A stretch of 64,000 nt of DNA from Ancylonema sp. (taxonomy: Eukaryota). Location of the stretch: contig JBFLGF010000026.1 in the NCBI GenBank assembly GCA_050230475.1, positions 1 to 64,000 on the forward strand, written 5' to 3'. Both the position numbers and the translations under genes were made by a program. Below the pieces are notes generated by a model. The model made no database searches. It was given only the letters and a program-made list of their open reading frames with translations, and was not told the origin of the DNA. Each line of letters begins with the position of its first letter. Position 1 is the stretch's first letter. Below are positions 10,080-61,633 of this stretch, piece after piece.

Positions 10080-11648
10080 TTACGCCAAGTCCCCTGGTGG
10101 TCTCCAGACCCAAAAATGTTTCTTGACCCCTACAGCTGCTTCGAGGGTCGCCCCCGCCCCCGCCCCCGCCCCCGCCCCCACCCCTCCTATAGCACACGTA
10201 CACACAGCAGCTCTCTCTTTTGTCAAACACCCTCTGCCTGATTGGCCAAGGCTTCCTTCCACTAACACCTCTCCGTCCCCCAGGGTTTCCCTGGGGGTGG
10301 TGCAGGCAACCCCTCTTGCTTCCCAACCTGTCAGCCGTTCATGAATGCATTCATGCCCTTCAGACATACCGCCCGAAGTGTCCAAACTTCCATATTCGTT
10401 TTCTTCTGTCGAAAAGCTGCCACGCGGCAGATCTGCCACGTGTGCCGCCATAGAATGAACCACGTATCGCGTGAGCAGACCCGGGTACGAAAAAGACTCC
10501 CTCTCCTCCTCCTCCCGCACATAAGTTTCTCCCAACACGGTTACCCGTTCCCTTGAACCAAGTGTCGGCCCCAGTTCCTCGGCTATTCCCCTCAAGCAGG
10601 CCTCTGCTACCTGTTCCCCGGGTTTCATTTTCTCAGACAAAGGCCGATTTCTGGGCCTCACAGCCCCATTCGCCATTTCTTGGTGGGATTCCATTAGTAG
10701 ACCGCCGAAGTCGTTCCGAATCAGCACGCTTGCCACGTGTACGGTGCGCTTGGGTGGCCGACAGTCCTCTAATGAGATCTCGCCTTCTACGAGTTCTGTC
10801 CACAGGTTTGCGACCCGTTTTGTTGCAGCACTCTCGCTCCAGCTGGCCAACTGCACAGCGCCACCTGGCAGTCTGTCCGTAAGCCATCTGGCAAGTCCCT
10901 CTATCCCGCCGAGTTCCTCTGCTGACACGCAATTAGATGTAGAGGGACACAATTCCGCCGAAGGGATCTCTCCCATAAGGCATATCTCAGAGCCTTCGGC
11001 CACCTCCTCCGTTATCGCCACGGGCGCATCCATCGTTCGGGCGCACGGGCCGGTGTATTGACGCACAGATGCTGCGTTTAGACTGAAGGAAGAGTTGAGG
11101 CAGGTGTACAATCCCAGCTCTAGCCAGATGCTTGTCCTCTTTACTTCGCCTGGTGCGGGACGATCAGACGAGGTCTGTGTGCAACGAGCAGGAACAGGAA
11201 GGCGGAATGGTCTCAATACGCGTTGCGGTACTGGTGACCAGCAACCGATAGGTGGAGCCGAGAAGGTGTGAGTATCTAGAGGAGCGCGGGCTGGCTTGCA
11301 GTTGAGCGACTTCGTGAGGTATGTCAGCAGCGGCCAGGAAGAAAAATGAGAAATGGAGCTCGATGAGTGGGAAGGGTCTTGCAGGAGAAAAGGATGACGC
11401 GTGGGGAGGAAACCAGAAACAAATTTCCTCGAAGACTGGACGGCTCTCACGATTGATGACGGAGTCGTATTTAAATAATTGCGGTCTTGTCTGGTCAGAA
11501 TATGCCGTGAAGCGTCACCTTCCAGGAAAAAATCACCACACATCGAGGGATTGTAGGGTATGGCGGCGCATGGCGTTGTACTGATACGGATAGGCATAGC
11601 AGCACAGTGGCGCCAATGCCTACACCCCGTGCGACATTTATCTATCAC
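10080..11648 (-). CDS. Conserved plant Nudix-fold-like protein of unknown function; single ORF, true start uncertain (conserved part begins near ATG 11033)
   Basis: 522-codon ORF. The core NLWTELVEGEISL..PPKRTVHVASVLI...LMESHQEM..G.VRPRNRPLSEKMKPGE..EACLRGIAEELG...SYPGL.TRY..H...VKKHFWVW resembles a land-plant uncharacterised family with a degenerate Nudix box. Confidence 0.75.
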   Translation of the reverse strand: MIDKCRTGCRHWRHCAAMPIRISTTPCAAIPYNPSMCGDFFLEGDASRHILTRQDRNYLNTTPSSIVRAVQSSRKFVSGFLPTRHPFLLQDPSHSSSSISHFSSWPLLTYLTKSLNCKPARAPLDTHTFSAPPIGCWSPVPQRVLRPFRLPVPARCTQTSSDRPAPGEVKRTSIWLELGLYTCLNSSFSLNAASVRQYTGPCARTMDAPVAITEEVAEGSEICLMGEIPSAELCPSTSNCVSAEELGGIEGLARWLTDRLPGGAVQLASWSESAATKRVANLWTELVEGEISLEDCRPPKRTVHVASVLIRNDFGGLLMESHQEMANGAVRPRNRPLSEKMKPGEQVAEACLRGIAEELGPTLGSRERVTVLGETYVREEEERESFSYPGLLTRYVVHSMAAHVADLPRGSFSTEENEYGSLDTSGGMSEGHECIHERLTGWEARGVACTTPRETLGDGEVLVEGSLGQSGRGCLTKERAAVCTCAIGGVGAGAGAGAGATLEAAVGVKKHFWVWRPPGDLA

Positions 11649-11989
11649 TTTTCAAAGTATCTCATCCTGCGTAACATGACATCAGAACAAAAAATATGTA
11701 CTCCCGAGCTTCCGTCTGATGCGTGAAGACCTGACTCTTCGTGCAGAGCCCGCCAACCGCAAGAATAGGGACAAGATGGCAGATCAAGGTGCATTCGCAG
11801 TGTAGTTTCTTTTCGAGCAGCCAAGAAGACAGGCGTACCGTGTGGCCCTGGTGTGGAAGAGACGCCCGAGAAGCGGATCAACAAATCGAAGCGCATCCGT
11901 TTTGCTTTTTCAGCAGATCTCCCATGGATGACGTGGGCGCTCGACGTCCCTGGAATTCGGATGGGATTCCATTAGTCCACAACTATGCC

Positions 11990-22444: not shown

Positions 22445-22705
22445 TAGGGTGGCGGTCTACCCTTAACCCGGAAAACCATTAACCCGTAACCCTGCGGTAT
22501 TGACCCGCAAATAACCAGGGAACCAGAAACCGGGTTAAAAACCCGCAATAACCAAGAATAACCCTCGTACCCGAAAACACCCGGAATACCCTTGGGTACT
22601 TGAGGGTATATGAGAGTATTTGAGGGTATTTGAGGGTATTCCAGGGTACATCAGAGTAGATTATGGTAGGTTGTTCCGGGATTTTTTTGTCATATATAAC
22701 CTATA
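22445..22705. repeat. ACCC/GGGT-motif-rich MITE-like remnant
   Basis: Starts TAGGGTGG. Repeated AACCC/TACCC motifs switch to GAGGGTA repeats; no TSD found. Confidence 0.35.
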
Positions 22706-23617
22706 AATGAAGTTGTCCCCACTCCTGCTTTCACCCAACTCCTAGAGTAGTACTTAGTTCCTGCGAATGAAGATGTCGTGGAGGAAATGGTGAGGGCTTC
22801 TACTGCTGTGGTGGCCGGTGATGGATCTGACGGGTGACAATTAGGGCGGTAGGCGGCTGGGGGCTGGGGTATTTATTTGTTCGCGATAGAGTGGCAGCGG
22901 GCGGGAGCCTGCAGGGGCCCGTCAGTCTATAAATTGTTCGATAGAGCGATCGAGATTCGATTGGTGTAGCGAGGGATAGTTACTAGCCGTTTGACTTTTG
23001 GTTGCGGTTCAGTATAACGGGTGTTAGGCCACGGGACGTTCCAGCGAAACGTGGGACGTTCCAGCGACACGTGGTCGGGTCCGGCTCCCGGGTTGTGGGG
23101 TCATATAGTGCCATGCTGGCATGAATGTGATTGGTCGATTGTGATCGTTAGAGATTGCGACGTTGGGTAGGATAGGCTTGGACTAGATGCATCCGATCGG
23201 ACGCATGCGTACGGCGTAGAGTCTATTATAGCGTACGGAAAGTACAAGTGAGTCGGAAGTGTCTTGTTGAACTTTCGGACTATGTATTCTGATGCATGAG
23301 GAGTGCATACCAACTAAGCTTTGGCAAGAGCGGTAACGTGTCTGTTTTGTGATTACGTTGAGCTTTGACTATGGCGATGTTAAAGGCTTATCATTGAGCG
23401 GATGCTGAATATTGTAGCGGTGATCATTTGCTGCGTACGATAGTGCGTTCGACGCGTCCAGAGAATGCGTTAGATATCTTGCCCAGTACGTTTACTCTGG
23501 CGTAATGCTACGCTAGTAAAATTTTCAAAACTAGATTTTGAACCAAATTTTCAGCGCGTGGTTTAGTTCTGACAACCAAAGATGGTAATTTTCGGTTTGA
23601 CTTAAACCAGTACGTTC

Positions 23618-24187
23618 ATGTCTGGTTGGTCTCGTGATCAAAACCAACGCTTAGTTCGAAGAGAAGCAAGCGTATGGGGAAGTGGTGGTGAAAACAGTAG
23701 TGAGTCATCGCGCGATAGATTGCGATCGCGGTCACTATCAGCAGGACTGCAAGAGTTTGTTGACTCTCAGGGTGCGGCTGGATTGCGAGATCTTCAGCTT
23801 GTTTTGTACCAAGCCCCGAATCCTGCGCCACAAGCGCCTTTACTAGCTGGTTATTTTTGTTTCCGGCTGGTCGGGCTTGAGGGGGACTCAGAGATGAACA
23901 GTACGGTGGCTATGCAAAAATATTCGGGAGGGGGAGGTGTGGTGCAGCGGCACTTTATTCAGACGATGAAAGACAAGTGGGACGCTATAAAGAGGAACCC
24001 ACCGAAATTCTTGAGTGGGGAGTATGGACAACTTGAATTCCTGAAGGAGTCTGCCGCATATCTGGAAGGGGAGGCTCGGCTGGTACATGATGATTACCGA
24101 CAATCACTAGATCACACTGATCCTGATAACCCGAGTCGAGCTATCGCCATCGCAGTGGAGGTGGTGCGGGATATATACCGAGCATAA
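23618..24187 (+). pseudogene. gag-like N-terminal fragment of the gypsy element
   Basis: KYSG..FIQ..KW...AAYLEGEARL resembles the retrotransposon capsid N-terminus (LxGxA motif). It is followed by a stop and an acidic linker. Confidence 0.45.
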
Positions 24188-25033
24188 TATGGGCAGAAGG
24201 CCAGCTGGTGCAATCTGACCTCTACAGCTCCGAGGCTGAGGAAGGTCAGTTCGAGGATGCGGAGAGCGACACTTCTTTCGAGTGGGAGGAGGTGGAGGAG
24301 GGGAATATGGGGGGGGGTGAGAGTGAGGGAGTGGTGGAGTTAGAGTGGGAAGGGGAGGTGCAGAATCTGGCACCACTCACTCTGCTGGAGCAGATGGAGG
24401 AGCAGGCAGCCCGGGGGTGGGATATAGATGGGGAGATAGCTAGAGGGGTGGCGCTCGATGAGGCCAACCTCTTGCTGGAGGAGGAAATGGGTGGAAAAAG
24501 TCCGGGGTGGGCTGAGGAGGGGGTATGGGGGGGGTAATGGGGAAGCCTGGGAGAAATTCCAGGGCATGGCGGTCACAGAGTTGGGAGATAGCCCAAGGGA
24601 GGGTGGGCCAACCGCCCAACCGCGGCTGGTGGAGGGCCAACCGCGGGTGGGACCCCAACCGCAGCAGAGGCTGGGACTGGGGGTGGAGGGGGAGATTCAG
24701 AACTGGGGGAAGCACACGAGGGTGGTGCAACCTGACCCTAGGGTGATGGTAGGGGGGGTGGCTGTGAAAGGCACACGACAAAGCCAGCCCCCACCGCGGT
24801 TGGGGGAGCTGACTAGAGCCCCGAGTGAGGCAGATCTGCAAGTGGTAGAAGTGCAGCGGGCGGATGCAGCACGTCGAGCGGCGGCAGCTTTGAGGCTGTT
24901 GAAGGCGAGAGAGAGCTTGCTGGGAAAAGAAAAAATACAAAGATCCTGGAAGTGGGTGGGGGCAGCAGTGAGAGGTGCAGCACCATTTAACACCAGGGTA
25001 GTGAGTCTGAGGGAGGAGGCAGCGGAGGAGGGA

Positions 25034-26037
25034 GTGCATATTGTCGAGTTTTTTAGTGGCATCGGTTTGAGCGCCACAAGAGCAGCCTTGGCGGCAGGAT
25101 TGAGGGTGCGGCTGGTGTCATGCGCCGAGAGGGACCCCATCTCTAACAAGATCAACGAGGGGGTGATCGAAAAGCTAATCCTCGAGTACCCTGCCAGATC
25201 AACAGGGGGGCTTTTATTGGCTGGGAGAAAAGGCTGCCACAAGATGTGGGGCTGATTGGAGAGATGGCGCTGGTTAACCTGATTGCGCACAACGGGGAGG
25301 TGGATATAGTGGGAGCTGGCTGGGAGTGCCAGAGCATAACCCGGGGGGGGAGGCAGGAGGGGTATGCAGACAGGAGGTTTCAATACTTCTACAACTTGGT
25401 GCGCATCCTGGGGTGGCTGCAGCACCATCAGGAGAGATCGCCAGTCTACTTCTTGGAGAACACCTACCCGGGGGAGTTGGCCAAAATGCCTGAGTCGGTG
25501 CAAAAGACTGCACGGCTGATAGAGTCCTTCATTGGGCTGGGGGTGGTTTTTGACGCGGGAGGGTTGAGAGCAGCCAGCCATCGGCTGCGCTATTTCTAGA
25601 CGAACGCCATGGATCGGGATGAGCTGCAGGAGGCAGTCCCACAGGATCTGCACCCAAGCCCACAATTGAGGGAGATCTTGAGGGAGTATCACATACCCAA
25701 GGCACGTGCTTTCACCGATTTCCCGCCTCAGGTCGTAAGGAATTTCCGGGGAGGGGAGAGGATCCTAATGCCGACAATCTTCAGCTTTCAAGGGAGCTAT
25801 GCCTTCAGAACTCAAGAGGATGGGAGCCCAGGGGAAGGGCAAGTGTACAACACCAACACCCACAGGTGGGAGGAGCCAGATGTGGGCGAGAAAGAGCAGC
25901 TGCTGGGGTTCCCGGAGGGGACCACTCGGGCGGAGGGGGTTTCCGCGAAACAACGAGCGGAGAGGCTGGGAAAGTGCATGGAGGGCAACACCATGAGGTG
26001 GCTGGGGGCTCTGTGGGGAGCCAGCATGAGCAACTAG
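25034..26037 (+). pseudogene. DNMT3-like C5 cytosine DNA methyltransferase domain (one frameshift at ~25193, TAG at 25597-25599)
   Basis: Motif I VEFFSGIG (FxGxG at 25052-25066); motif II AERD; motif III QDV; motif IV VDIVGAGWECQS (Cys 25327-25329); motif VI YFLENT; motif VIII DAGGLRAASHRLRYF(W)TN, like DNMT3 DA...AAHRARYFWGN; motifs IX-X EKEQLLGFPEGTT....SAKQRAERLGKCM, like EMERVFGFP..YT...SRLARQRLLGRSW. Confidence 0.9.
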
Positions 26038-27104
26038 GGAGGCGCTGCCACCCAACCCCTAAATCGGGGGGGCCAGCCGCAGTCCAAGGGGGGCTCCGGG
26101 AGGGTGCGGTTGGGGCGCGGTTGGGGGCAACTGGCCAAGGCACACATTATTAGAGATACTTGGATCTGGGGAGCTCAGGAACACGATGGTGAACACCAGA
26201 GGAGTGATTTCGAAAAGGCCAGCCTTCCAGCATACGGAATGTATGCTGGTCTCATAGGGGGAGGGGAGATGGCAAAGGCACAAAAAGTGGTGCAGGCGCT
26301 GCTAGACTTCGATGCTGAAGCTGAAACTTTGGGAGCAGCTAAAAGGCATCAAGATAAACCAGGAAAACAGCTGGGTGCAGCCAGATTCAAGGGGACCAGC
26401 TCAGGGCAGCATTTATCATTGGCAGCTGGCCTACCCGACATAAAAATAGCTGAGGGAGATGCTGATGGGGCGATTTTGCACCTCCAGCAAGAAAAATCTG
26501 TAATTTTGGGATATGGTAGAGAGGAGGCTAAGGAGCCAGGATCACTAAGCATATAATAATTTGGACAACTCAGCAGTCCAGGAGAGCTAGGTAGCTCAGG
26601 CAGCCAAAAAGGCCAGAATTCTGTCCAGAATTCATATAAAGAGCAGTTAAACCCTAGGGTTTTGTAACTAGCAGCGGTTTTTTGAGCTGGTAGTGAGGAT
26701 AGGGTAGGCATTTCCAAAAAGTCATCTCATGTACTCAGCAACGCAATATCAAGAATTTCCAGCCCTTTTTACTATTCTGAGTGTAAAATGGATTTGGCCA
26801 GATCTGAAATCCAAGATTTGGATTTGCAGACAGGGGTTTTGGGGGGGGATGGCATGGATTTGAAACATGATATAGGGGGGCAAGAGCTATCCATAGAACC
26901 ATTGCATCATTGAACTCTGGATTTGGAGCAAAACTAGGGCCTGCAAAGCTGCAGATGGGTGCTCTGGAGGAGAGGCAGCGGTTGGGGGAGGTTGGGGGTG
27001 GGGCGGTTGGGGCCCCACTGAAAACTTCAGAAAATCATTAAAAAAAAATAAAAAAAATACAGGGGGATTTTAGGGGGAATGGTAGACAGCACTCAGGGGT
27101 AGGA

Positions 27105-28570
27105 GTGAGCACTAAGGGTGGGACCTTAAACCCAAAACCTGATTTTTCTAAGAATTTCAAGAAAATCAAGGTTGGGGGGGGATTAAAGGAAAGGGACCAG
27201 TTGCTAGTCTTGGAGCTGCTGAGGGAGTACAATGATCGCTTTGCTTACAGCATGGAGGATCTGGAGCTGTTCAAGGGAGAGCCAATGAGCATTGGGGTGG
27301 TGTCAGAGGGGAGGGTTAACAGGCCGCCGCACAAACTCGGGGAAAAGGAGTGGGAGTTTGTGGAGAAGCAGTGCGAGAAGCTGGAGAAGCTAAAGTTCAT
27401 CAGGAAATCACTTCATACCAAGTATGCTTCGGCTACTGTGGTGGTGACGAAGAAGGACGATGAGGGGAACTACATTAACTTCAAAAAGTGCGGGGACTAT
27501 AGGCTAATTAATGCGCTGACTCCGCTCGACAAGTACCCGCTCCCATTGATAGAGGACATCTTCGATGACATGAAGAGGGCAAAAATCTTCAGCAAGTTGG
27601 ATCTGAGGTCGGGGTACCATCAGATGCCACTACTGGAGGAGGACCGTGCCAAGACAGCATTCTGGGGAGCTAGGCGGATGCTGTGAGAGTGGTGCATGGT
27701 GCCGTTCGGACTGAAGAACGCGCCGCCTTACTTTCAGCGCCAGATGGACCACATTCTGGGGGGGCTGCCATTTGCGAGGTGTTACATCGATGACATCATC
27801 GTGTGGAGCAGCACGCTGGAGGAGCATCTGAGACACCTGCAAGAGGTCTTCAGACGACTTAGAGCAGCAGGGTTGAAGGTGTACCCAGGAAAGTGTTTGT
27901 TTGTTGTAGAGAGCATCGACTTCCTGGGGCACAAAATCACTGCGGCAGGGTTGCAGCCACAAGAGGAGAAAGTGAAGGCAGTCAAGGACCTGCCCGCGCC
28001 TACAAACTTGTCATCGCTAAGGGGGGCGTTGGGGCTATTCAGCTACTATCGCAAGTTTGTACCGCATTTCAGCACCATTGCCTTCCCGCTCAACAAGCTG
28101 TTGCGGAAAGGAGAGGTCTGGGAGGGGGGAACAGAAGGAGGCCTTTTTGAAACTGAAGGAGGCGTTGTGTTCGGCTAGGGTGCTGAGGCTACCAGATGGG
28201 AGCAAGCCATTCTACCTTGCTACTGACTAGAGTCAGAAGGGGATGGGGGCAGTCCTGGGGCACAAGAACGAGCGGGGGCTGGACTACGCTGTTGTAACCC
28301 AGGTGAGAAGAACTATTCCAGTTTTGATGGGGAATGCTTGGCTGCAGTGTGGGCGACTTCACATTTAAGGCAGTACCTGATCGGAAACCAGTTCACACTG
28401 GTGACCGACCATGAGCCAATCTAGTGGATCCTGTCGACAGAGAAGCTGTCTGGGAAGCTGGCGAGGTGGGCTTTGCCGCTGCAAGAGTTCGACTTCAAGG
28501 TGGAGCACAGGGCAGGTGCAGAGAACGGCAACGCACATTGCCTTTCCAATTTCCCCATGGATTCCATGGG
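27105..28570 (+). pseudogene. pol: Gypsy reverse transcriptase and RNase H, with stops and frameshifts
   Basis: CGDYRLIN, DKYPLPLIED, FSKLDLRSGYHQ, KTAFW, PFGLKNAPPYFQR, YIDDIIV, FLGH, LGLFSYYRKFVPHFS. RNase H: FYLATD*S, EKNYSSFDGECLAAVWA, FTLVTDH, ARWALPLQEFDF. Confidence 0.93.
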
Positions 28571-28849
28571 AGGACCTGAGGTACCTGACCGGGAGCGGGG
28601 CGACATCATTTTCCGACCCGAGACTCTTTTGGCTATGATGGCACTAGGAGTGGGGGGTCAAGAGAAGGTGGATGAAACCACTAAAGTCGCCTCAAGAGAG
28701 ATGTGGGCTGACAGGCACTTGTTGGAATACCTGCAAGCAGGCAAGCATAGTGAGAAGTGGGATGCTCTGGAGAGAGATCGGGTGTACGGGAGGGGGACCA
28801 AGTAGAGGTGGCTGGGAACCAGCCTGTACAAGGTGGGAGAGAAAGGAAG

Positions 28850-30135
28850 GATGCTAGTGATCCCTAGACCGCGTGAGAGGGAGGGGTTGGGGAAGAAAGT
28901 GCATGAGGAGATGGGGCACTTTGGGGTCATGAGAATAGCAGACCTACTGGGGAAGACCTATTGGTAAGAGGCATGGTGGAGATGGTGGAAAAAGTGGTGA
29001 AGGAGTGTATGAGCTGCGCTCGGGGCAAAGCCGCTTTCCAGATAGTCTAGGAGGAACCTTCAGCCGCTTCCCATCAAGGGACCTATGTATAGGTGGGGGG
29101 TAGACTTTGCCAATGGAGGAGACAGATAGGGGGAACAGATATGTGTTGGTGTGCATAGAGCATTTCACCAAGTGGGTGGAACTCATCCCAACAACCTCCA
29201 AGAAGGCCGCAGAGGTGGCATACCAGTTCAAGTCTCAGATCTTATCCCGGTATTGCGCACCAAGGGAGGTGATCACAGATCAGGGTAGTGAGTTTCGAGG
29301 AGAGTTCGAGACACTCCTGGCCCGCCATGAGATCACCCACAGGACTGCAGCCAGGGATCACCGGGATCACCCGCAGGGAGATGGGATGGCGGAGAGGATG
29401 GTGCAAACAATGAAGAAAGCACTCGGGAAGTGCTTGCTTGAGGGAGGTGGGGAGCAGTGGGATTAACTGCTGCCTTACGTAGCTATCTACACGCTTTCAA
29501 AGCAGAAGTCATTGGGCTACTCGCCATACTTCTTGCTGTTTGGAAGGGAGCCGATCTTTCAGGCTCGGATCCAGGACGAGGAGGAGAGAGTCTTTGATGA
29601 GACTCAAGGGGAGGAAGCCATGAAAGTGTTCCTAGATAGGAGGGGTGAGATCTTTTAAGAAGTTCTGCCACTGGCATTCACGAACCTGGCGATTGCCCAG
29701 CAGAGGGATGTAGAGAGATACAAGCTAGTCCGTGGAGGAGGGTGGGATAGGCCAAAAGCGAAGTTCAAGATTGGGGACTTTGTGCTGCTGAAGCGGCCGA
29801 CGGCTAGCTCCCTGGAGGTCAACACAAGGCCACACATCTTGAGGATAGTGGAGCTTAGAGACTCAGGGATAGCAATTCTTGGGGGTAGAGATGGGACGAC
29901 AATGCAGGAGCAGGTGAAGCACATTGATCACTGCACGGTACCGGTGGGAGACAAGAGGGTCTACCCGGAGTTGTATGATCGCGGGGAAACAACACACTGC
30001 CGGGTTTGTGGGTTGCGGTCCTACCCGAAGCGGATGGTGTTGTGCGACAAATGCAACCAGGGGTATCACACGTGGTGTTTGACACCACCCTTGGTAGGAG
30101 TGCCGGAGGGAAGCTGGACTTTTCCTCGACACTAG
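28850..30135 (+). pseudogene. Gypsy integrase (HHCC, DDE core, GPY/F-like region) with C-terminal PHD finger (29998-30132)
   Basis: VHEEMGHFG...YW...VKECMSC; CIEHFTKWVELIP; ITDQGSEF; HPQGDGMAERMVQT; FKIGDFVLLK; then CRVC..RMVLCDKCNQGYHTWCLTPPLVGVPEGSW (C4HC3 pattern with the last ligand pair changed to F and H). Confidence 0.88.
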
Positions 30136-30177
30136 GTGAGCTACTTACTTCAGAGTGAAGTAGTCACAAAAGACTCT

Positions 30178-30513
30178 ACATCGGAACCATGCAATGTAAC
30201 AGCGGAACCATTGCATGAAAGAGCATTGAACCCCACATCGGAACCATGCGATGAAACATCGGACACATTGCATGAGAGGGGCTATGGTGATAATGGTGTT
30301 CCATATCACAGGATATGCAATGGAATTGGCTGATGCCTTTGCCGGAGGTATCTAAGACCTCCATAAGAGGCATGAAGACCTCCATGAGGGGCAAGTGCAA
30401 TGGATTGGGCATGTGCCAATGCCGGAGGCATTGAAGACTTCCATAAGGGGCAGTTATGCAATGGATTGGCGGATGCCTTTGCCGGAGGCATTCAAGACCT
30501 CCATGAGGGGCAA
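30178..30513 (+). repeat. Two short tandem-repeat arrays in the 3' untranslated part of the gypsy element
   Basis: 57-bp unit ACATCGGAACCATGC... at 30178 and 30235. ~60-bp unit TGCAATGGA..GCC..TGCCGGAGG..AAGAC.TCCAT.AGGGGCA at 30316, 30396 and 30457. Confidence 0.85.
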
Positions 30514-31208
30514 TAATCAACCTTTCTGCAGGGAGTGTGATTGGTCAACTTCTATGAAAAGTGTGACACTAACCTAACCTCAATTCACTAAGTCAATAAA
30601 AACATTGAGAGTGAGAGGAGGTTGGCGCATGTAGCGCGGAGGCTCAATCAAGTTTGAGGCCTAGAGACCAAAGGTGGATCCTTTGGTGGTAACAAACTAA
30701 ACTTGCGGGACTTGTTTGGGTGTGGGTGATTTGACCAACTCCTCTTGGATAAGTGGGTGAGGGGCTAGCTACCCCAAACCCACCAATATCTTGGAGGAGT
30801 AGGTGTTCTCTAACCATTGTGCAAACGGTGTTTGGCAATGATGGGAAGTGCAGATCAAACATATTTTTTTCTCGGTGATTCCGAGCCGGGGTCGCGGGAG
30901 CTTTTCCCGTCTTGGGGGGGGGAGTGAGCATTAATTTGAAGCGCGTTGTGGTCGCGCGAGTTGCGGCACTGCATGCCGTCTAGGCGCGGTGATGGGGAGC
31001 GGTGCTCGGTAACTGCATGCCGTCTAGGCGCGGTTATGCGAGTACGGAGTGTGCCTAGGGAGATGGTCTTGCTATGTGTGATAGCTTGTACGGTCGAGTG
31101 GACCTTGTTATAGTCACGATGTGTACGGTGTGCCTATACGGTGTAGTGCTTACACGTGTAGCCGTACAACGAATCGATATAGGTACGACAAACAACGCTA
31201 CTCTCAGG

Positions 31209-31887
31209 TAGGGTTGTGAATTTTACATTTACGTATTTTTTTACATGACGTAATACGTCAATTACCGTTTTTTACGGTAATTTTACCGTAATCTAACAAA
31301 TTACATCGATATGCTCAATTACATAATACATGGCCAAACTGGAGATTACACGTAATATGCAAGGATTTCAATTAAGGTTTTTGTAAAAAAAAAAAAAAAA
31401 AAAAAGATGTGTGAAAAGTTTTTCTGTTTCGTTCCCCGTTGTAGATCGTGTATTTTCTAATCAATACTAGAACTATGTAGTTTGCATATTATTTGTCCAA
31501 CATGGACGGAGTTCTTGATGTTATAACCTAGATGTGTACCAAAATAGCATATCTTCTCTTCTCTTCTCTTCCCGTTGAAATCGGTACACCATGTTTTTCC
31601 TTTCCACCCATATTTTAGTGCATCATCTCCCCTCAAGTCCAATATTCCATTTCTTCCTCAACCTACTTATAGTGCTACTTGTGGCCATTTCTCCTTCACA
31701 AAATGCAATGTTAACTTTACATTTTAATCGTAAAGACTGTAAATTGGTAATTATCTCAATTACGGTTACATGTAAGGCCATCGTCAAATTACATGGGTTT
31801 TTGTCAAATGACGATATTATGGTAATTCGTACATTACGGTTGTATTACTTACGTCGAAACCCGGATTACGTTATATTTACAACCCTA
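31209..31887. mobile_element. Non-autonomous hAT element with intact 8-bp target-site duplication
   Basis: TIR TAGGGTTGTGAA / TTTACAACCCTA. TSD CTCTCAGG at 31201-31208 and 31888-31895. Subterminal TTAC/GTAA motif arrays. Confidence 0.92.
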
Positions 31888-32329
31888 CTCTCAGGCCACA
31901 ATGGCTGTTCGAGCCGTATCTACGGTCCCCGTAAGTTCTGACGGCGGAATCTCGGGAAAATCTCCATTGGCATTAGGAAATTACATATGGCAGTAGGGGC
32001 TCCCTTATCTTCATAGCTTAGATAAGGGGTTATCCATACACTGCTAAATTGCTAAGGTAGACATGCTTTCTGAAATGTTTTCATACTCCACATTTGGAAC
32101 GAGAATTAAGCAAGTATTGTCTGAAACGTATAAGAAAATCAAAACATCTTAAGTGACAAACAAGGCGAGTACGAATGGAAGCATTGTTGATTGCGTATTC
32201 ACTCAATAATGAAGTCACCATATTTTCATATTTTTGCCATATTTTCTCTACACATTGACACTTGTTTTACTACAACCACGAAGTAATGAAGTAAATAAAA
32301 ATTGTCATCACAACTTGGAGGGGACCTTA

Positions 32330-33335: not shown

Positions 33336-33573
33336 ATGTAGTGGCCATACATAATGACCCGGGTTTTTTACATGAATAAATCTAATTGATAAACCACTAT
33401 TTGACCCAACCCGCGCACCCAATAGAAAATTCAGAAAAATCCTGGAAAACATTTATTATCTGGTGACCCACATCATAGAATGACCCTTAGAAAAACAAAA
33501 AACAAAATATTTAATTTCACCCGACCTACTGTTTTCATAATTATTTGAGGGTCACTATGTATGGCCAGTACGG
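33336..33573. mobile_element. TA-type MITE (same family as 62511-62777, opposite orientation)
   Basis: TIRs TGGCCATACATAATGACCC / GGGTCACTATGTATGGCCAGTACGG followed by TA. Confidence 0.7.
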
Positions 33574-33871: not shown

Positions 33872-36106
33872 CTATGGCAAAAGCAAAATGTCACCTGCAA
33901 GGCATGATATTTTCGACATTTAAAGGCAACAGAATTGGCCACATACTATTGTACAATCCAAATCACATTGATGACAACTTCATGGAAACTCCCTCCAAAA
34001 AGGAAAGGGAAAAAAAGGAAAAGAAGAAATAATGAACATAAGACTTTTGACGAACTTACATGATGTTCAAACAATAGCCAAAAAGATAGCAGCTCTTGAC
34101 ATGCTTCATAGCACGGGAAGCCAACAACATTGCACATTTGGATAAAAGTTAAGAGTCACATCAACACATTCAGAGGTCCAACATGGTTCTTGTTGTGGTC
34201 ATATCAATATTATTACCTGGGTTGATTTGATTGGGATCCTTGATGTTGTTGACCTTGAGAATATCATCAACCGTTAGGTTGAACTTTTTTGATATTTGGT
34301 ACAAAGTGTCCCCCTGCGAAAAAAGGAGAGAATGTTTAACAAAGAAAACCATCCCAGAAGAAGAACACACACGATCTACACCCATGAAAATGCAAAAACA
34401 CCAATTCTCTAACACGTACTCAAAGCTCATATCTCAGGAGGACAAAGACCAACAAAATAGAAGTTAAAAGCAAGCTATCGATCAAGGTTTTATATTTAGT
34501 GTTTATTTCTATTTATCTATATAATGATGATTATGTATTACCTTCACAATGACATAGGTCCTTGGCACCCAAATCTTTTGTTCTGGGTATATGTCATCGC
34601 CTTTGAGGTCGTTCACAGTCTTCAAAACAACAACGGAGGAGCCGAAGTGTTGAGCAATGGACGTCAACGTGTCTCCTTTCTTCACCTCGTACACTTGCCC
34701 GCTTTCAGATGCTAGTAGCAGTCAACCACCCACGAAGAAAGAAAAAAACGAACAATCAACAAAGCTTTCAGCAAACGAGTCCTCTCACGGACCTCTATCT
34801 ACATATATTTTTCGTCGTATTCGAGGTGAACACCGAAAACACATTCCTGACACCACTCGTATTGCCCCAAGTAGAGACCAGACACAATTGAGAGGAAGTG
34901 ATACACTAACTCCGAAAAGTGATGAAGTCGAAAGGTTTTAGAGCACAAGGTACAATCTGGGCCATTGACAGTGGTCGGAAATTGCTTGAGTTATTGTCAG
35001 CCTCGAGACCACGCTACCTATACGAGGTTTCTGCATGTCATCCTGGGCGTGCGCAAAAATCTATCCATCCCACCATTTGAAGCTGCAGCTTTGTCGCCCA
35101 CCCCATGATTGAAAGTTTTCGCGCCTAAAAGAAGAGCACCAGCTCCAGCCGCAGCAGCGAATTTCAGAAATCGGAACTCGTCGCTGCAGAGACCACAGAG
35201 CTGCCACAGTCTCAGGAAGGAAGGAAGGAAGCACAAATTGCACAGAAGTTGTACCACAGCTTACTCTATGCTAGTACGCTCACTTTCAAAAGTCAATAAA
35301 AATCCAGCGTTGCCCCGGTACTAGTTTGTCAGGCACGATCACAGGGGGGTGCAGTGCCGGAAAAAAATAGACACTCTCTGACAGTGTAACCTAAGCAACA
35401 TTAGGCAACGTAGTCGTATTCCGTTCTATAGTTCTCCCTCATTGATCGCTCTACATCATTCACTCAGCCCGCATTTAAGGTTCAAAAATATATTCAGTCG
35501 CTGTAAAATTAATGAGGGGGCTTTCGGCTCGATGTAAAAAGACGACAGACACACACGTGAATGAATATACACAGGAATACCAAGTAACCAGAGCGGATGT
35601 GCATTTACAAATCGTGGAATTTCAAGTGACGACCAGGACGCATCAGTTGTGAAGAATTAGCAAGGAATTACAAAATTAAGCGTGAAATTCAGGCACCCGC
35701 TGTACCCGCTGGATTTTTGAAGATAGCTGTGATCGGCCATCGAATGAAAAAGCAGCAACTTCTAGGCACAGACTGAATTTGAAACGAGAATGTCTGTCTG
35801 TCTCACTGGAATATGATATGTGAATGAAGTCTACAGTGAATAAGGTATCTGGATTTCCTATCTCTGAAATATGGTATGGGGATGTCAACGACTTCTTTCT
35901 CGGATTGAATAACTGAGCTGGCAGTACTCCTCCGCTCATGCCACCTCTGCTTCCGGCGTCATCTTCCACCCTGCAACTACCGCCACGCGTCACATCAAAA
36001 GAAAAAAACGTACGGCTCTCGATGTCCCCGGCACCCGTACAACGCCCTCGATTTGAATCCCGCCAAATTCACCCAGCCCCTCAGTCGTCGCGGGCTGGGC
36101 CGCCAT
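33872..36106 (-). CDS. Tandem LysM-domain protein with a hydrophobic anchor N-terminal to the LysMs; multi-exon, 5' exons and start tentative
   Basis: Spliced exons 34711-34542 (QVYEVKKGDTLTSIAQHFGSSVVVLKTVNDLKGDDIYPEQKIWVPRTYVIVK), 34313-34217 (GDTLYQISKKFNLTVDDILKVNNIKDPNQINP) and 33894-33872 (GDILLLP*) give two complete LysM repeats with GT-AG junctions. An upstream exon at ~35102-35183 reads FLKFAAAAGAGALLLGAK. Confidence 0.8.
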
Positions 36107-36558: not shown

Positions 36559-43163
<6,605 letters not shown>

Positions 43164-45326: not shown

Positions 45327-45764
45327 TGTTGGAAAAACACTTAATGCTTGAGTATGCATTTAGGGCCCTTTGGTGGCTTTAGGAATAATTGTGTGCCTAT
45401 AGCGAGTTAGTGACGTTGTATCGGATTATTGCGTGTGGTTTGTGTGGTCTGACTCAATAGTCGTGTTGTGTGTACGAAGCCGGAAATGTGTTGACCTACT
45501 TGTACGGGCCGGCAATAGTTAGCATGACATGTGGGCCGGACGTAGTTAGCGTAAGATGTGGGCCGACCGTTGTTCGGCAAGCCGGCCAATAGGGTGTGAT
45601 GTTATCTAGGCGACTATAAGTGGGTCATTTTGTACCACTCAAATTAATTCATTCATGTCGTTACATTGACCCCACGTGTCGAGTGTCATTGTTTTGAATT
45701 CACTTGAGGCGGTTGAGCAAATCTCGCAAGTCGAGTTTGGATTTCCCCAATAGACGATTCAACA
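45327..45764 (+). repeat. 5' LTR of copia element
   Basis: TGTTGGAAAAACAC...GACGATTCAACA; matches 50006-50565. Confidence 0.92.
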
Positions 45765-45766
45765 AT

Positions 45767-45778
45767 TGGTATCAGAGC
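45767..45778 (+). promoter_or_regulatory. Primer-binding site complementary to the initiator tRNA-Met 3' end
   Basis: TGGTATCAGAGC 2 nt downstream of the 5' LTR. Confidence 0.92.
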
Positions 45779-48700
45779 GGACGAAGGGTACGCGCGGCTC
45801 CGATTGGTCCTGAAGGAGGAGTCAACGTTTGGTCAACCGTGATCGAACAGTTGTTCCGGGAGAAGCGAATCTGGGGACACGTCCAAGGGACGATGCCACA
45901 CCCGGGCCCGCCCTTAATTGTGGGGGCGGGAGCCACAGCGGGGAGCCCCAGAATCCCTGCCATCCCAGAAGCCATGGGCGTCGTGGGCGTGCTAGAAATT
46001 GTTGTCGTGATTGCGAATCCCGGCGTGACGCAGGCCCAAGTGGATGCGCAGCAAATTCTGATCGAGAAGTGGGAGGCGAATGAAGCGAAGGCTACGGCAA
46101 TTCTGCTTCAAAGTCTGCGGCCAGTAGACGTGATTTCGATTCGCGCGCTACCGACAGTTCACGCCACATGGGCGAAGCTAATGTCAGACTACGTGCCAAG
46201 ATCGAAAATTCTGGCCATGAACGCGCACAATCGGCTCGTTAACTTAACAATGTTGCATGGCAAACGAGTTCTGGCCATGAAACAACGTCTGGAGTCCTAC
46301 GTGGACAAATGCGCGACGCAGCTGGTGGTCACGACGGAAATTGAGCGCACTAATGCGCTTTTGACACGTCCGACACCGAAATGGCAGAATTTTTGCGACT
46401 CTACGGCCGCTCAGAATCCTCTCCCAACGCTCGCGATGATCTTCCAGACCATGCTAGGCCTTGAGGAGAGGTGGAGCACGCGAGAGAAGGAGTCAGAGCA
46501 CGCGGAAGCAGCGTACGCCACGTAGGGCAGAGGCGAAATTCTGGCGGGGGAGGCGCAATATGCGCAAATGTGCGCTCTAGCGGGAGTCGCGGAGATCGCC
46601 AGAAGCAGAGGTTAACGCAGAGGTCCTGGAGCAGGCTTGTCCAAGTCAACGTGCTACTGCTGCGGGAAAGAGGGACATTTCGCACGTGACTGCACGCATC
46701 GAGACAAGGCGTGCTCTTCCTCTGGCAAAACGGGGCACCTGGCAGCGACCTGTCGATCAGCGGGCGCATCAGTGGCGGAAGCAGCGGCGGCGCAGACGAG
46801 CGAAGGCGGAGGCGTGAAGAAACCCGCCAAGAAGGTCACTTTTGCCGCCCTCGGCAAGAAGAAGCGGGCGGCCCTGGCGGATGCGCGGTTGGCAGAGGTT
46901 GGGGAGACGGAGGTGTATGTGGCGGAGGCGGAGGCGCACTCCGTCCAGACAAGCGGGGGCGAAAGCAGCGACATCGTGTGGGTGGGCGACTCAGGGGCGG
47001 ACCGGCACTTCGCCCGCTCGGCGGACATTCTGTGGGACCTCCAGCCGTGCCCGGAGCCTGTCATCATCCGCCAGCTGGTGGGGGAGGTTATCGCCACGCC
47101 CCAGAAGACGGCGCATCTGATCTTCGAGGACAAGGAGGGGGAAGCTGTACACGTGGCATTGGCCAATACCCTTCTCGTCCCCGAGATGGCGATCAACCTC
47201 TTCAGCATCCAGAAGATGCGACATGCCGGGATTCTTCGGGAGTACCCCCAGACGGTGGGACGCGTGTGGATGCGCAACAAGGAGTGAAGCTTCGACGAAG
47301 CTGCGAGGGGGAGGCCGACGATGAACTGCCGCACCCTGCTAAGGGAGATCGGAAGCCCCAACCTCTCCCCTCCCCTGCCCCCTCCCCCTCTCCCACCCCC
47401 AGCAGAGGTCCTGGTAGCAGCGGTGGATGCCAACCTTCTACTCCTGCGGACGGGGCATACTGCCCTCCCCTCCCTCCAGCGGTTGGCCAGAGGTGGCCTT
47501 GTCAGGGGTGTAACGAAACGCTAGGAGCCAATTCATACTTAGAGCCACTTTTGCGGCTAGGTATTAATTGCCAGCATCGGATATAAGGCGCAGCCCTTAT
47601 ATCCAGGGGTGGGCTCATGGATATGAGTCCACGGGTTAATCGGACACGTGGGAAGGATGCACCGCGTGCATCCTCAGCCAGTGTCTCGATTGCCCGGTTG
47701 ACTGCGAAACGACATTGACTGTCGACAGGAATAAATGTCCTAGAGGTTACAGGACTAAGGGTGCGTACCCTTGCGCCCTCGTAGCTGCCTCTTCGGACAT
47801 CTAAGCGCAATATGTATATTGACCTGCTCCGACTAGCTTCGACAGCTCGCGCAGAACTCTGAGTATGCGTCTATTTCATACAACTCGAGAGGATGCCTTA
47901 GACTCAATTGAGCCCTATATAGCTCATTATGCTAACCTTTAACAGCGCGCGATCAGGCCCTCATCAGCCATGCGCGTGCTTTGGGATGAAGCTGTTGAAA
48001 CAAGTCCAATATGCGGCTGTATATTCGAACGAGAATCGGGACTGACGATTACGCTACCGGTACGTCGGAACCCACAAGGCAACGGAGCTGCCGAGCTCGT
48101 GCAAAGTGCGCAGCATAATTGACAGCGGTCGCGCCCCCTAGTAACCTGCGCGCCTTCGGCTGACGCTCCGGGACTGTGCGCACATCTGAGTGAAAACAGC
48201 TATTTCATACAACTCAGGCCGAGAGGATAGCGCCTTAGACTCAGGAGTGCTGACCTATATAGCTCATTATCCCAAGGAGCTCAACGTTTCGGGCGACCCG
48301 ACCCATCGACCTCGTCCATGCCGACCTTGCGGGCCCGATCAGGCCCTCATCATGGGGCCATGGCTCGTTTGTCTTCGTGCTTTGGGATGATTTCAGCCGC
48401 AAATCTTGGGTCATCATTCTGAAATCCAAGTCCAATGTTGAAATGCGGCTGAGACAATGGATCGCATTGGTCGAACGAGAATCAGGGGAGAAATTGGGTC
48501 GATTTCGAACTGACAATGGGGGGGAATTTGTGAAGGAGACCCTCAAGGAGAGGCTGAAGCTACCGGGCGTGCAACAGGAGTTCACCCCCCCTCGGAACCC
48601 ACAAGGCAACGGAGCTGCCGAGCGTCTGAACCGGACCCTCCAGGACAAAGTGCGCAGCATGATGGCGCAGGCGGGGCTCGGGGGCGGAAGCTGGGGGGAG

Positions 48701-50005
48701 ACATTTTTGGCGGCATCCTATCTTCGCAACCGGGGGCCAGTCAATGGTCTGGAGTTGACTCCGCAAGAATTGTGTGCAAAGTCTTCGCCCCTTTGTAGAA
48801 GCCTCAGAGGAGCGGGAAGCTTGGGGCGGTGCGCTGGGAGGGGGTTCATCTCGGGTATGCTGAAAATAGCCCCTCCCCTGCAAGGTTCTCAACGTGGCGG
48901 GGGCAGATTTCGACGAAGGGGTGGAGAGGGGCTGGTGGCGCAAGGAGCTGCAGCAGGAGGGGCCAGAGATGGAGGCAATCGCCTTCCCTGAGCTCGCCGC
49001 GTGTCCAGATCCCCCTCCCCCACCCCCTCCCCCACCCCCGTTCCCACCCCCACCCACAGATCCCCCGCTGGAAGACGACCTCCCCGACCTGGTAGAGGAC
49101 GAGTCCGGCGACGGGGGGGGGGATGGCGATTCTGACGGGGATTCTGACCCCGGTGATGACTGGGGGGCGGGCGGAGGGGCGGCTGGAGGGGCGGAAGTGG
49201 CAGAATTAGGGGCGGGAAGGACGGCAAGGGGTAGGGGCCGCCCTAGGGGCGCTAGGGCCCCAATTTTCACCAATTCTCCTCGGAGAAGTGCTAGGGAGAA
49301 CCGGGGAGTGCCCCCATTGCGATTTGTGGAAGCTTTCACCGCGACAGTCGTCATTGCATGCCCCGGATCCGTGTCCGAAGCGCTTAGTGGACCCGAAAAA
49401 GAAAAATGGGAAAAGGCGATTAATTCCGAATTGGAGAGTTTGGAGGAAAATAACGTGTACGAGGTAGTGGAAAGGCCTCCGGGGAAAGTCATCGGGATGA
49501 AATGGGTGCTTCGGGAAAAAACGGACGCAAAGGGGAAAGGCGCGGGTGGTGGTGAACGGGCTTAGTGAAACGGTGGGAGTCGATTACTCCAACACGTTTG
49601 CACCGGCGGGACACCATGAAGGACTTCGGGGGTTGGTGAACGCGGGAGGATCCATGAGTGGGGGTTTGAGCATCAAGAGGGGGTTCTTTGTGACAACCAA
49701 AGTGCTATGAAAATAGCAAAGAACCCGGTGTTTCACAAGAGGTCTAAGCATATTAACATCAAGTACCACTATATTCGGGAGAAGGTTGAGACGGGTGAGG
49801 TGGAACTTGTGTATGTGCCTACAAAGGCAATGGCGGCCGATCAATTGACGAAGCATGTGGGATTGAGTGTGTTTATGGAGGGGAAGGACTTGGGCTTGAT
49901 GGGAATGGGATAATTGGAGTAGAAGGTTGTGACAAGAGTAGGACAATGGGAGTTTGTCATATAGCATGGGGATGCATAAACTTTGTCATTAATTGAGAGG
50001 GGGAT

Positions 50006-59570: not shown

Positions 59571-60188
59571 TTATGTTTGCATCAAGCAAGATCACCACAG
59601 ATTCAATTTTTGTGTGATGCAAAGAATTACTCAAGCGCTGCTACTGACAGACTCTTGGACCATGGTAACAATTCTCCTACACCGCGCAAGGGGTGAAACT
59701 AGTACATTACCCAGCCTGGCCATAACTTATTGCTGCTTCAGGAAAAAACATATTGCTGGGGAGGGCAGCATCACAAGCCTCTGCTCAACCACCCATCAGC
59801 AGTCATGGCTCCTCCAGAACGGGGTTGCACCGAAGACAAGCGAAGTGTTTGGGCAAACGTGGGCCACAGCTACTTGAATTCGCGTGGCAATCCCAGGGGC
59901 CCAACTTCGCAAGATCGGAGCAAGGTAACGACGCAAACTTCGATATAAAGATCCCGTTGTAAAGAAACAAGTCGCTGTGAGAAAATTTACCTTTTTTGTT
60001 TGCAACAATTTCAGTCAGGTTCTACTGTACGTCGACGTGCCTATAAAGACGCATCTGCAGCTTTCCCAGCTCTGGTGGTGTCGTCGATCGTGCTTCCACA
60101 ACGCATGATTTTCACTTTCAGTCCAGAGGGAACTCTTGGAATTAGTTTTTATTTTTGTATATTCGTACACATAGCTCGATAGTCAACG

Positions 60189-61633
60189 ATGTTCAAGAAG
60201 CCATCGACGGCGAGGAATATCCGCAAGCGCCCGGCTGCTGAGGAGGGAAGTGAGGATGAAGGCAGCGAAAGTGTCGTAGTACAAAAAAACAAATCTTCTC
60301 GGAAGGCGGATGGGAAGCTTGCCTTCAGTACAGAATCAGGGAGCCAACGACGAGATAAGAACAGAGAACTTGAGGGGCCTGAGGAAACTAATGTGCCAGC
60401 GTCTTACACGTTCGCCTTCGAATCTGACCGTCAAGTTCAAACTGCCAATGACAGTAATGCTACTGCCACGCTTGAAATAGACACGGAGAAGGATCGTGAT
60501 GCTCGTGCAATTCGTGAAAAGGTGCTGAAGCAGGCACAGCAGGCGCTGGAAGGATCTACTTCCACAGATTCCAAGGTTTACAAAGGAATAGCGGGGTATA
60601 CTGATCATAAAGCAGGTTTCAGGAGAGAACATACTGTGGGAGGGGATAAAGCTCTTGGGACACACGGGCCTCTGAGAGCCTCTGCACATATACGGAGGTC
60701 GGTCAGATTTGATTACCAGCCAGACCTGTGCAAGGACTACAAAGAGACTGGTTACTGTGGGTATGGTGACGCATGCAAGTTTTTGCACGATAGAGGAGAC
60801 TACAAGTCTGGTTGGCAGATGGAGAAGGAGTGGGACGAGAAAGAGAAGAAAAGAAGGGACAAAGTGGCTTCAGGAAGAGGGGGTGAAGATGGGGAGGAGG
60901 GTGACTCAGAGAATGATGGCAGCGAGGAGGAGGAGGATGAGCTGCCGTTTGCTTGCTTCATATGTCGCGAAGCTTTCACGGACCCTGTAGTGACACGTTG
61001 TAACCACTACTTCTGCGAACATTGCGCTCTAAAGGTATGACAGACTTTCCTCTGTTGCGGATCATCTGCTTATACCACCTTTTTCATGTGTTCGTTAGCA
61101 TCCATTCTCGTATTTGAAGCAATTCGGTGTATCTAGGGGCGGTGCCTCATAGTTTTTTTTTTTGTGGGAGGCCAGTTTTTGCCACGGCGTTGTAGAAAAG
61201 GACATGCATGCAAGGCTAGTTCATGTAAAAACTAGAATGGTCGTGATAGCCTGTCTTCTATGAGTTTGCCGCTGGAGTCAGCCTGCTGCTATTGCAAAGA
61301 ATGGATGACATTACACCAAGATGACATTACACCAAGGTTTGTTTTGCATAGTTTTCAGATGAAGATGCTTGGTTCCGGTGGGTGGTGTGGACCTCGGGAT
61401 GTCAATCTCTGTTTGTGCATGCATGTATGCGTGCATGTATGCATGCTTACCTCTGATGTGAAATTCATGCACACATGTATGTTTCCTAATGCGATACATT
61501 TAATGTTGTGCAGCACCACAACACAAGCAAAAAGTGTTTCGTTTGCAACCAACAAACAAACGGAGTTTTCAATACTGCGACGGCAATCTTGGTCCGAGAG
61601 AAGAAAGCTAAAGCAAGTGCCGCTGCCACATAG
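60189..61633 (+). CDS. CWC24: CCCH zinc finger + RING spliceosomal protein CWC24/RNF113, 2 exons (60189-61034, 61514-61633)
   Basis: [105 protein letters not shown]. Confidence 0.95.

Follow-up and report, generated by a model that had tools for sequence, protein, structure and literature searches.

A decayed Ty3/gypsy copy in Ancylonema and its green-lineage relatives with a DNMT3-like methyltransferase and a PHD finger

We analyzed a 64,000-nucleotide stretch of Ancylonema sp. DNA (GenBank assembly GCA_050230475.1, contig JBFLGF010000026.1, positions 1 to 64,000 of the forward strand; hereafter, the window) and found in it a Ty3/gypsy retrotransposon copy that carries, on the + strand and in this order, a gag fragment, a cytosine-C5 DNA methyltransferase (DNMT) domain of the DNMT3 type, and a reverse transcriptase (RT), RNase H (RH), and integrase (INT) ending in a PHD finger. 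A writer and a reader do occur together in the element, although the two probably do not form one coupled unit. Our best explanation of the whole, which we hold with a little more belief than doubt, is that the locus is a dead copy of a high-copy family in which the DNMT would mark the element's own complementary DNA (cDNA) and the PHD finger would tether the integrase. Enzyme capture of this kind has been reported in one alga, and the family extends far beyond that case.

The original prediction, made from the sequence alone, had drawn the element from 23618 to 30135; it reaches beyond both limits, to about 22842-31915, with single-copy DNA back by 31916. The methyltransferase domain had been described as intronless, co-oriented with the element, and lying between a gag-like fragment and RT-RH-INT-PHD, and it mapped in just this way. 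A full set of C5-methyltransferase motifs at 25034-26037 was likewise recovered, in order and on the + strand, by six-frame reading and motif mapping. The features of the copy are as follows.

22842..23492 (+): 5' terminal repeat A, CpG-rich, left edge uncertain (summed depth, A-to-B joints, CpG observed-to-expected ratio 1.31)
23894..24187 (+): N-terminal gag fragment (33% identity over 91 amino acids to the N-terminus of relative P0001, E 3e-8; also matches P0009 and P0036)
24188..24919 (+): acidic low-complexity linker (no match to P0001)
24920..26037 (+): DNMT3-type C5 cytosine methyltransferase with a conserved upstream helix (motifs from 25034)
25034-25066 (+): DNMT motif I
25118-25135 (+): DNMT motif II
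25312-25332 (+): DNMT motif IV, G-W-E-C-Q (not P-C)
25450-25464 (+): DNMT motif VI
25579-25596 (+): DNMT motif VIII
25888-25911 (+): DNMT motif IX
25963-26004 (+): DNMT motif X
near 25190, 25597 (+): breaks in the DNMT, a frameshift and a stop; the frame ends at the stop at 26035
26038..27158 (+): spacer between DNMT and RT, all frames closed in the window copy (sister contigs cover it at element-level depth)
27159..28560 (+): reverse transcriptase and RNase H (YIDD at 27783; broken by two frameshifts and by stops at 27684, 28228, and 28422)
28700..29950 (+): integrase with HHCC zinc finger and DDE core (broken by three frameshifts and by stops at 28803, 29464, and 29656)
29998..30135 (+): PHD finger of the unmodified-H3K4 type (predicted) at the integrase C-terminus (Pfam PHD, E 9e-10)
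30136..30913 (+): 3' untranslated region with short tandem repeats at 57-80 bp spacings (high depth)
30914..30922 (+): G-run (polypurine tract) adjoining repeat B (read from the sequence)
30923..31208 (+): 3' terminal repeat B, unrelated in sequence to A, right edge uncertain (highest depth bin, A-to-B joints, CpG observed-to-expected ratio 1.4)
31209..31887 (no strand): later insertion, a miniature DNA transposon with short terminal inverted repeats (8-bp target duplication, 31201-31208 and 31888-31895)

The later insertion, which we take to be hAT-like from its 8-bp duplication and TAGGG ends, splits the right end of repeat B. The stretch from the DNMT through the PHD finger is broken by at least seven in-frame stops and some six frameshifts. 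The copy is therefore dead, with no functional protein; the two breaks of the original prediction, the frameshift (placed there near 25193) and the stop at 25597, are both present but are not the only ones. Neither a zinc knuckle nor a protease gave a tblastn match in the window copy, and both are present in intact relatives; together with the remainder of gag, they are missing immediately ahead of the acidic linker. Eight contigs of sequencing run X2 hold different sequence before 24209, which together with these missing parts fits a deletion in the window copy or its subfamily.

Pfam searches of the window pieces, proposed at the outset as a check, were clear for RVT_1 (E 1e-19), rve (E 3e-11), and PHD (E 9e-10). 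Pfam alone was weak for the DNMT (E 0.023, below the curated cut-off); its identity comes from intact relatives, to which it is 47% identical over 281 amino acids (E 1e-94) and of which P0008-P0011 match PF00145 above its cut-off. The nearest solved structure to the window RT is that of Ty3 (E 3e-28), and the RT-RNase H region is 53% identical to P0008.

The DNMT is a feature of the family and not an insertion private to this copy. Depth was taken from contigs of two DNA runs of one sample, possibly the window's source, and a summed depth is not a copy number. In run X1 it reached 28,657-62,389 over the DNMT, where the flank stood at about 120, and in the second run 1,335-2,580, where the flank stood at about 9.6; repeat A reached a summed 128,000-237,000 in X1, with the same flank value of about 120. 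Many sister copies thus contain the DNMT, whose absence from them would have refuted the original prediction. Seven contigs diverge from the window copy at the site of the DNMT frameshift. Runs X3-X7 contributed small shares, and X4 gave no coverage of the single-copy flank.

Protein searches returned 3, then 11 relatives. In P0008, P0010, and P0014, a single open frame reads protease-DNMT-RT-RH-INT-PHD, bearing out the proposal of a Gypsy family that has both a DNMT3-like domain and a PHD finger. P0001-P0006 are Gag-knuckle-protease-DNMT open reading frames (ORFs), some of them partial, with a stop 7 residues past motif X, close to where the window frame stops. The DNMT shares an ORF with RT in P0008, P0009, P0010, and P0036, and does not do so in the window copy or in P0001-P0006. 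Because the ORF of these six near relatives ends after motif X, the DNMT and the PHD finger can sit in separate ORFs.

A DNMT profile matched 268 protein clusters at E<=1e-30 among 1.84 billion representatives. Among the best 150 of these, DNMT, integrase, and PHD occur together in 44. In 29 of these 44 the parts follow a second order, RT-RH-DNMT-INT-PHD. Of the 150, 13 partly match the order seen in the window, and 62 are DNMT alone, mostly short fragments. Pfam found a PHD finger in 19 of the 30 scanned matches of at least 1,000 amino acids (67 such matches in all), and the remaining long matches were annotated with custom profiles. Most matches lack an organism name. Named hosts of the window's order are Closterium (three strains), Mesostigma viride, and Marchantia polymorpha, and those of the second order are Chlamydomonas eustigma and Monoraphidium neglectum. 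The first Atlas cluster was mostly Streptophyta, and an Atlas search with a second-order element gave only a match under 0.9. The three Marchantia proteins (P0284, P0286, and P0287, or MARPO_0204s0011, MARPO_0008s0049, and MARPO_0020s0163) are Gag-like-protease-DNMT ORFs with a W-P-C motif IV, and their place in the clade means that the family reached land plants. In many second-order proteins (P0126, P0102, and others), the chain runs on for 100-500 residues beyond the PHD finger, with a PTM/DIR17-like Tudor domain in one and a G-patch in one, a hint of further reader modules.

Metagenome and viral contigs gave no match to a narrow DNMT alignment. A broader one found 219 metagenome stretches and none in viral contigs; 80 of the stretches were kept as related loci, many of them from few samples and some being one insertion seen twice. 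DNMT, RT, integrase, and PHD stand in the window's order in 26 of the 80 and in the second order in 9. The two orders separate in a DNMT tree of 137 rows (SH-aLRT 98, with two long rows unsure) and, weakly, in an RT tree of 70 rows, and both the DNMT and the RT of the window group with these relatives. When two distant DNMTs serve as outgroup, a poor one, the second order falls inside the first; on these trees, a single capture followed by relocation of the DNMT is possible.

The DNMT of the family looks like a working enzyme of the DNMT3 kind. Among solved structures, its profile best matches DRM and DNMT3. The predicted structure of the P0008 domain (pLDDT 97, from an alignment of 83 sequences) best matches DNMT3A/B/C (Foldseek E 2e-19; Z 28.6, root-mean-square deviation 2.6 Å over 269 residues), and bacterial enzymes fit it less well (best Z 24.1; M.HhaI Z 23.6). 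All 137 aligned domains retain the catalytic cysteine, the motif VI glutamate and the R-x-R of motif VIII hardly vary, and most domains have the F-x-G motif for S-adenosylmethionine. Motif IV reads W-E-C in 72 of the 137, W-P-C in 32, and S-P-C in 4. Median ratios of nonsynonymous to synonymous substitution (dN/dS) were 0.37 for DNMT, 0.42 for RT, and 0.41 for integrase; they were measured on related loci with dS of 0.15-0.5, not on the window host's own copies, and many saturated pairs were dropped. By this measure, the DNMT is constrained like the RT. Stops in the DNMT copies of these loci are scattered at glutamine and arginine columns, at a density close to that in RT (1.27 versus 0.96 per 100 amino acids). 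We think it likely, from this conservation, that the DNMT of intact relatives is catalytically active.

The body of the element is CpG-poor (observed-to-expected ratio 0.29-0.54) and its ends are CpG-rich (1.3-1.4). With the protein held fixed, CpG across codon boundaries stands at 0.56 of expectation in the element, compared with 0.85 in a nearby Copia, 0.95 in a remnant resembling a long interspersed nuclear element, and 0.78 in host ORFs. As a compositional signal, this depletion agrees with self-methylation and equally with host silencing. On the sense strand of 24190-30920, and likewise in most related loci of the same order, the CpA excess (1.3-1.5) is larger than the TpG excess (1.0-1.3), which could reflect deamination of minus-strand cDNA, or composition. 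A decayed Ty1/copia at 45698-49565 (gag, zinc knuckle, protease-like barrel, integrase) is far less CpG-depleted than the Gypsy.

The PHD finger, which takes the place that the chromodomain (absent here) has in chromoviruses, at the integrase C-terminus, is a canonical C4HC3 finger. Its best solved match is the ATXR5 PHD (E 7e-12), with CHD4, DPF2/3, KDM5 PHD1 (KDM5B), and UHRF1 also among the nearest. In the window, the seventh zinc ligand is a phenylalanine, and it is a cysteine in 65 of 65 relatives. Methyl-lysine readers have their cage tryptophan two residues before the histidine ligand; among 65 distinct family PHDs (4 further ones did not fit the pattern), this position holds glycine in 60 and tryptophan in 1, and 57 have an aspartate after the third cysteine. 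ATXR5 and KDM5B PHD1 bind H3 unmethylated at lysine 4 (H3K4), an aspartate of the third-cysteine region binds H3R2, and a methyl-lysine cage requires the tryptophan (PMC5499861, PMC4225485; most papers are cited here from excerpts of their text). The family finger is accordingly predicted to read unmethylated H3K4, given its glycine at the cage position and its aspartate after the third cysteine. The original prediction had likened it to the ADD domain that steers animal DNMT3 enzymes. This analogy fails, since the finger is canonical, lies at the end of the integrase, and is about 1,100 residues from the DNMT in the fused P0008 and P0010, whose ORFs end 4 residues past it.

The ends of the element are unusual as well. 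For the window copy, we found no long terminal repeat (LTR) pair, no tRNA gene, and no target duplication; repeats A and B have no similarity and are not two like LTRs in direct repeat. Other copies, seen in sister contigs, join 23464/23492 straight to 30923, and a short motif beside repeat A in other copies is not in the window. Related loci are laid out either in full as A-body-G-run-B-A-B (8 loci, two of them one insertion) or as A-body-B, and in 6 of the 7 examined, repeat B follows the same CTTTTCCC...G-run context as in the window. Related insertions have TG...CA ends; among the 11 related loci with both ends, an exact 4-bp duplication occurs in 7 (two of these being one site), 3 of the 4 letters agree in 2, and none in 2. 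In all 12 inner B|A joints, 2 letters separate the two facing ends; the sequence is exactly CA-NN-TG in 5 and departs from it by one transition in the other 7, which is consistent with a decayed CAGCTG palindrome. With the purine tract before B, reverse transcription should yield B-A ends, and the inserted ends lie inside the repeat. We suggest that the integrase cuts a small internal palindrome of the end repeat, probably on a circle, and that this would give the A-body-B-A-B ends. Two related loci, L014 and L045, have nearly identical flanks and the same target duplication, yet one reads A-B-A-B and the other A-B. Origin of the A-body-B copies from one-LTR circles was set aside on account of this pair, and recombination loss between B copies or assembly collapse explains the difference.

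Taken together, we propose the following mechanism, which keeps two ideas of the original prediction, cDNA methylation by the element and integration guided by histone tails. In intact relatives, the DNMT would be packaged with Gag or Gag-Pol, be freed by the protease, and meet the cDNA in the particle or the integration complex, where it would methylate CG sites on the element's own new cDNA. We regard this action on cDNA as evenly balanced between true and false. The PHD finger would anchor the integrase on nucleosomes whose H3K4 is unmethylated and which lie away from active promoters, and we lean moderately toward its guiding integration. That the DNMT and the PHD finger work as separate products, and not as one allosteric unit, seems to us highly probable.

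Several observations weigh against this explanation. The DNMT of KnitGypsy-Dnmt3, the Gypsy element described from Klebsormidium nitens, gave no methylation in yeast, a result that its authors call inconclusive (PMC5890265). The residue preceding the catalytic cysteine is usually glutamate and not proline, and 45 of 50 DNMT copies in related loci contain stops. The flanks of related loci are as CpG-depleted as the element (median ratio 0.25 versus 0.355), and the in-window CpG controls are single elements; CpG loss was therefore rejected as proof of self-methylation, as host silencing accounts for it equally well. The split between the two orders has a support of just 86 (FastTree local) in the RT tree, and the DNMT and RT trees lack a proper outgroup. 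Finally, P0200, P0243, P0248, and related locus L006 show an integrase and no PHD finger.

Some of these points would suit a DNMT fold kept for binding rather than catalysis, which might bind cDNA or RNA, flip cytosines, or shield sites from host enzymes. The negative yeast assay and the unusual W-E-C motif IV both speak for it. Dead DNMT folds usually lose their catalytic residues first, and here the cysteine is kept throughout, the motif VI glutamate and R-x-R almost throughout, and F-x-G mostly, which makes a binding-only role unlikely, if worth keeping in view. The PHD finger might instead steer or activate the DNMT at the insertion site in the manner of an ADD domain, such that the target region and its flanks are methylated. 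The ADD domain reads unmodified H3K4, the mark predicted for the PHD pattern; the two domains occur together in the 44 matches counted above, in both orders, and the second order sets the DNMT directly before the integrase. We nevertheless find such coupling rather unlikely: a protease would separate domains as far apart as those of P0008 and P0010, the DNMT ends its ORF in six near relatives, several DNMT-bearing elements show no PHD, and PHD fingers are common in algal transposons for which the excerpted sources mention no DNMT (PMC9940879, PMC8557442).

An active DNMT could also serve self-restraint, silencing the element's own end repeats and keeping copy number tolerable, with no camouflage of cDNA. 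The discussion of PMC5890265 raises this possibility, and the CpG-rich ends would offer targets for methylation. It is the body, however, and not the ends, that shows signs of long-term methylation-driven CpG loss, and the family stands at hundreds-fold depth in the window's host, so that we judge self-restraint quite improbable. A host DNMT3 retrocopy that landed by chance in one Gypsy copy might seem to agree with the missing protease and the closed frames on both sides of the DNMT. We regard this reading as refuted by the element-level sister depth over the DNMT, the intact relatives that hold it in frame, and the grouping of both the window DNMT and the window RT with DNMT-bearing relatives.

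More broadly, and only as a tentative and rather doubtful extension, an ancient green-lineage clade (chlorophytes, streptophyte algae, and liverworts) may long have kept a putative three-part kit: an active DNMT3-derived writer with a W-E/P-C catalytic loop of its own that marks cDNA before integration, a reader of unmodified H3K4 on the integrase, and a permuted terminal repeat that is opened at a palindrome inside it. The writer would have moved once, from one place in the polyprotein to another, and in algae described as having no DNMT3 of their own, the clade would be a source of de novo methylation that has been overlooked.

Why a transposon should keep its hosts' silencing enzyme has been asked since 2018, and the only Gypsy example assayed showed no activity, according to the excerpted sources. 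Both halves of our proposal can be taken to the bench: intact versions occur naturally in number, the catalytic cysteine does not vary, the fold is predicted with high confidence, and unmodified H3K4 is the mark that the reader is predicted to bind. Several annotated Marchantia and algal "genes" may be transposon ORFs, and chlorophytes may hold DNMT3-type domains inside elements despite a transcriptome survey that found no DNMT3 in green algae (PMC9998398). The window locus itself is a dead copy; what this study adds is the breadth of the clade, its intact natural versions, and sharp predictions for the PHD finger and the ends.

The rest of the window holds several unrelated features.

241-2884 (-): several open frames, unmatched in Pfam, that resemble parts of a non-LTR retroelement
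10080-11651 (-): open frame of 523 codons, unmatched in Pfam
22445-22745: probable miniature DNA transposon, a short repeat of high depth that lies just upstream of repeat A, begins with TAGGG, and contains tandem units of 10 bp
33338-33571: probable miniature inverted-repeat transposable element, short and of high depth, with terminal inverted repeats of 23 bp
34173-34433 (-): LysM domain exon (E 7e-12)
40118-40590: (TA)n run of 473 bp
60183-61040 (+): host ORF with CCCH and RING fingers, which we take to be RNF113/Cwc24-like

Much of this picture has been described before, which lessens the surprise of the original prediction: DNMT capture, the cDNA idea, and split repeats in PMC5890265, a PHD-bearing Gypsy in PMC9940879, and both a methyltransferase and a reader in the EpiLTRs discussed below. 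The excerpts of PMC12344493 mention DNMT3 inside retrotransposons for streptophytes and dinoflagellates only, and PMC6317226 has no mention of PHD or methyltransferase. DNMT3 with PHD in a Gypsy, chlorophyte or Marchantia members, and two orders appeared in no title or abstract found, in a coverage that left most subscription papers, theses, and Repbase outside. Within that coverage, we did not find the green-lineage-wide range, the two domain orders, or the W-E/P-C catalytic motif.

The closest known system is KnitGypsy-Dnmt3, apparently the charophyte precedent mentioned in the original prediction. It has a Dnmt3 in the Pol ORF of a Gypsy, DIRS-like repeats, and purifying selection, and its authors proposed methylation of cDNA; related Dnmt3 domains of the SymbioDIRS retrotransposons methylated CG in yeast (PMC5890265). 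Our element shares with it an intronless, non-permuted Dnmt3-type domain with key residues kept, in a Gypsy of green plants. It also shares the repeat plan, A-coding-B-A-B there and, in the window, A-body-B with sister A-to-B joints, and purifying selection on the DNMT, measured here on related loci. Compared by description, it is very probably a member of this published streptophyte Gypsy-DNMT3 kind. KnitGypsy-Dnmt3 was treated as an acquisition of the K. nitens lineage (PMC5890265), whereas the clade here spans Mesostigma, Closterium, Marchantia, and chlorophytes. Unlike KnitGypsy-Dnmt3, this clade has two domain orders, and the DNMT of the nearest relatives often ends a Gag-protease ORF rather than lying in the RT ORF. 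No K. nitens protein was among the named matches of our DNMT searches. A PHD finger is not mentioned in the text of PMC5890265 or three of its supplements, although its Fig. 4c may show one, as Pfam detects the finger easily.

Compared with animal DNMT3A/3B/3C, the best structural match, the domain has motifs I-X in the same, non-permuted order, unlike plant DRM2; it differs from the animal enzymes in its identity of about 20-22%, in lacking PWWP and ADD, and in having W-E/P-C for S-P-C at motif IV. The animal ADD domain is directly N-terminal to the methyltransferase, while the PHD finger here is on the integrase. In Chlamydomonas, the polyprotein of Gypsy-7a_cRei includes a PHD finger and, unlike our element, no methyltransferase among its listed domains (PMC9940879). 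New insertions of PHD-bearing Chlamydomonas transposons are intergenic 2.6 times above chance, and targeting has been suggested (PMC9940879, PMC8557442). Writer and reader LTR elements have a precedent in the EpiLTRs of Cymbomonas and Euglena, which combine a cytosine methyltransferase, an adenine methyltransferase, and a chromodomain, and which their authors set apart from streptophyte Gypsy-DNMT3 (bioRxiv 10.64898/2026.05.21.726589). Neither an adenine methyltransferase nor a chromodomain was found by Pfam in the window pieces or the intact relatives. Both systems place a cytosine methyltransferase and a histone reader in one LTR element; the EpiLTR enzyme is sister to DNMT4 and its reader is a chromodomain, whereas the element described here has a DNMT3-like enzyme and a PHD finger.

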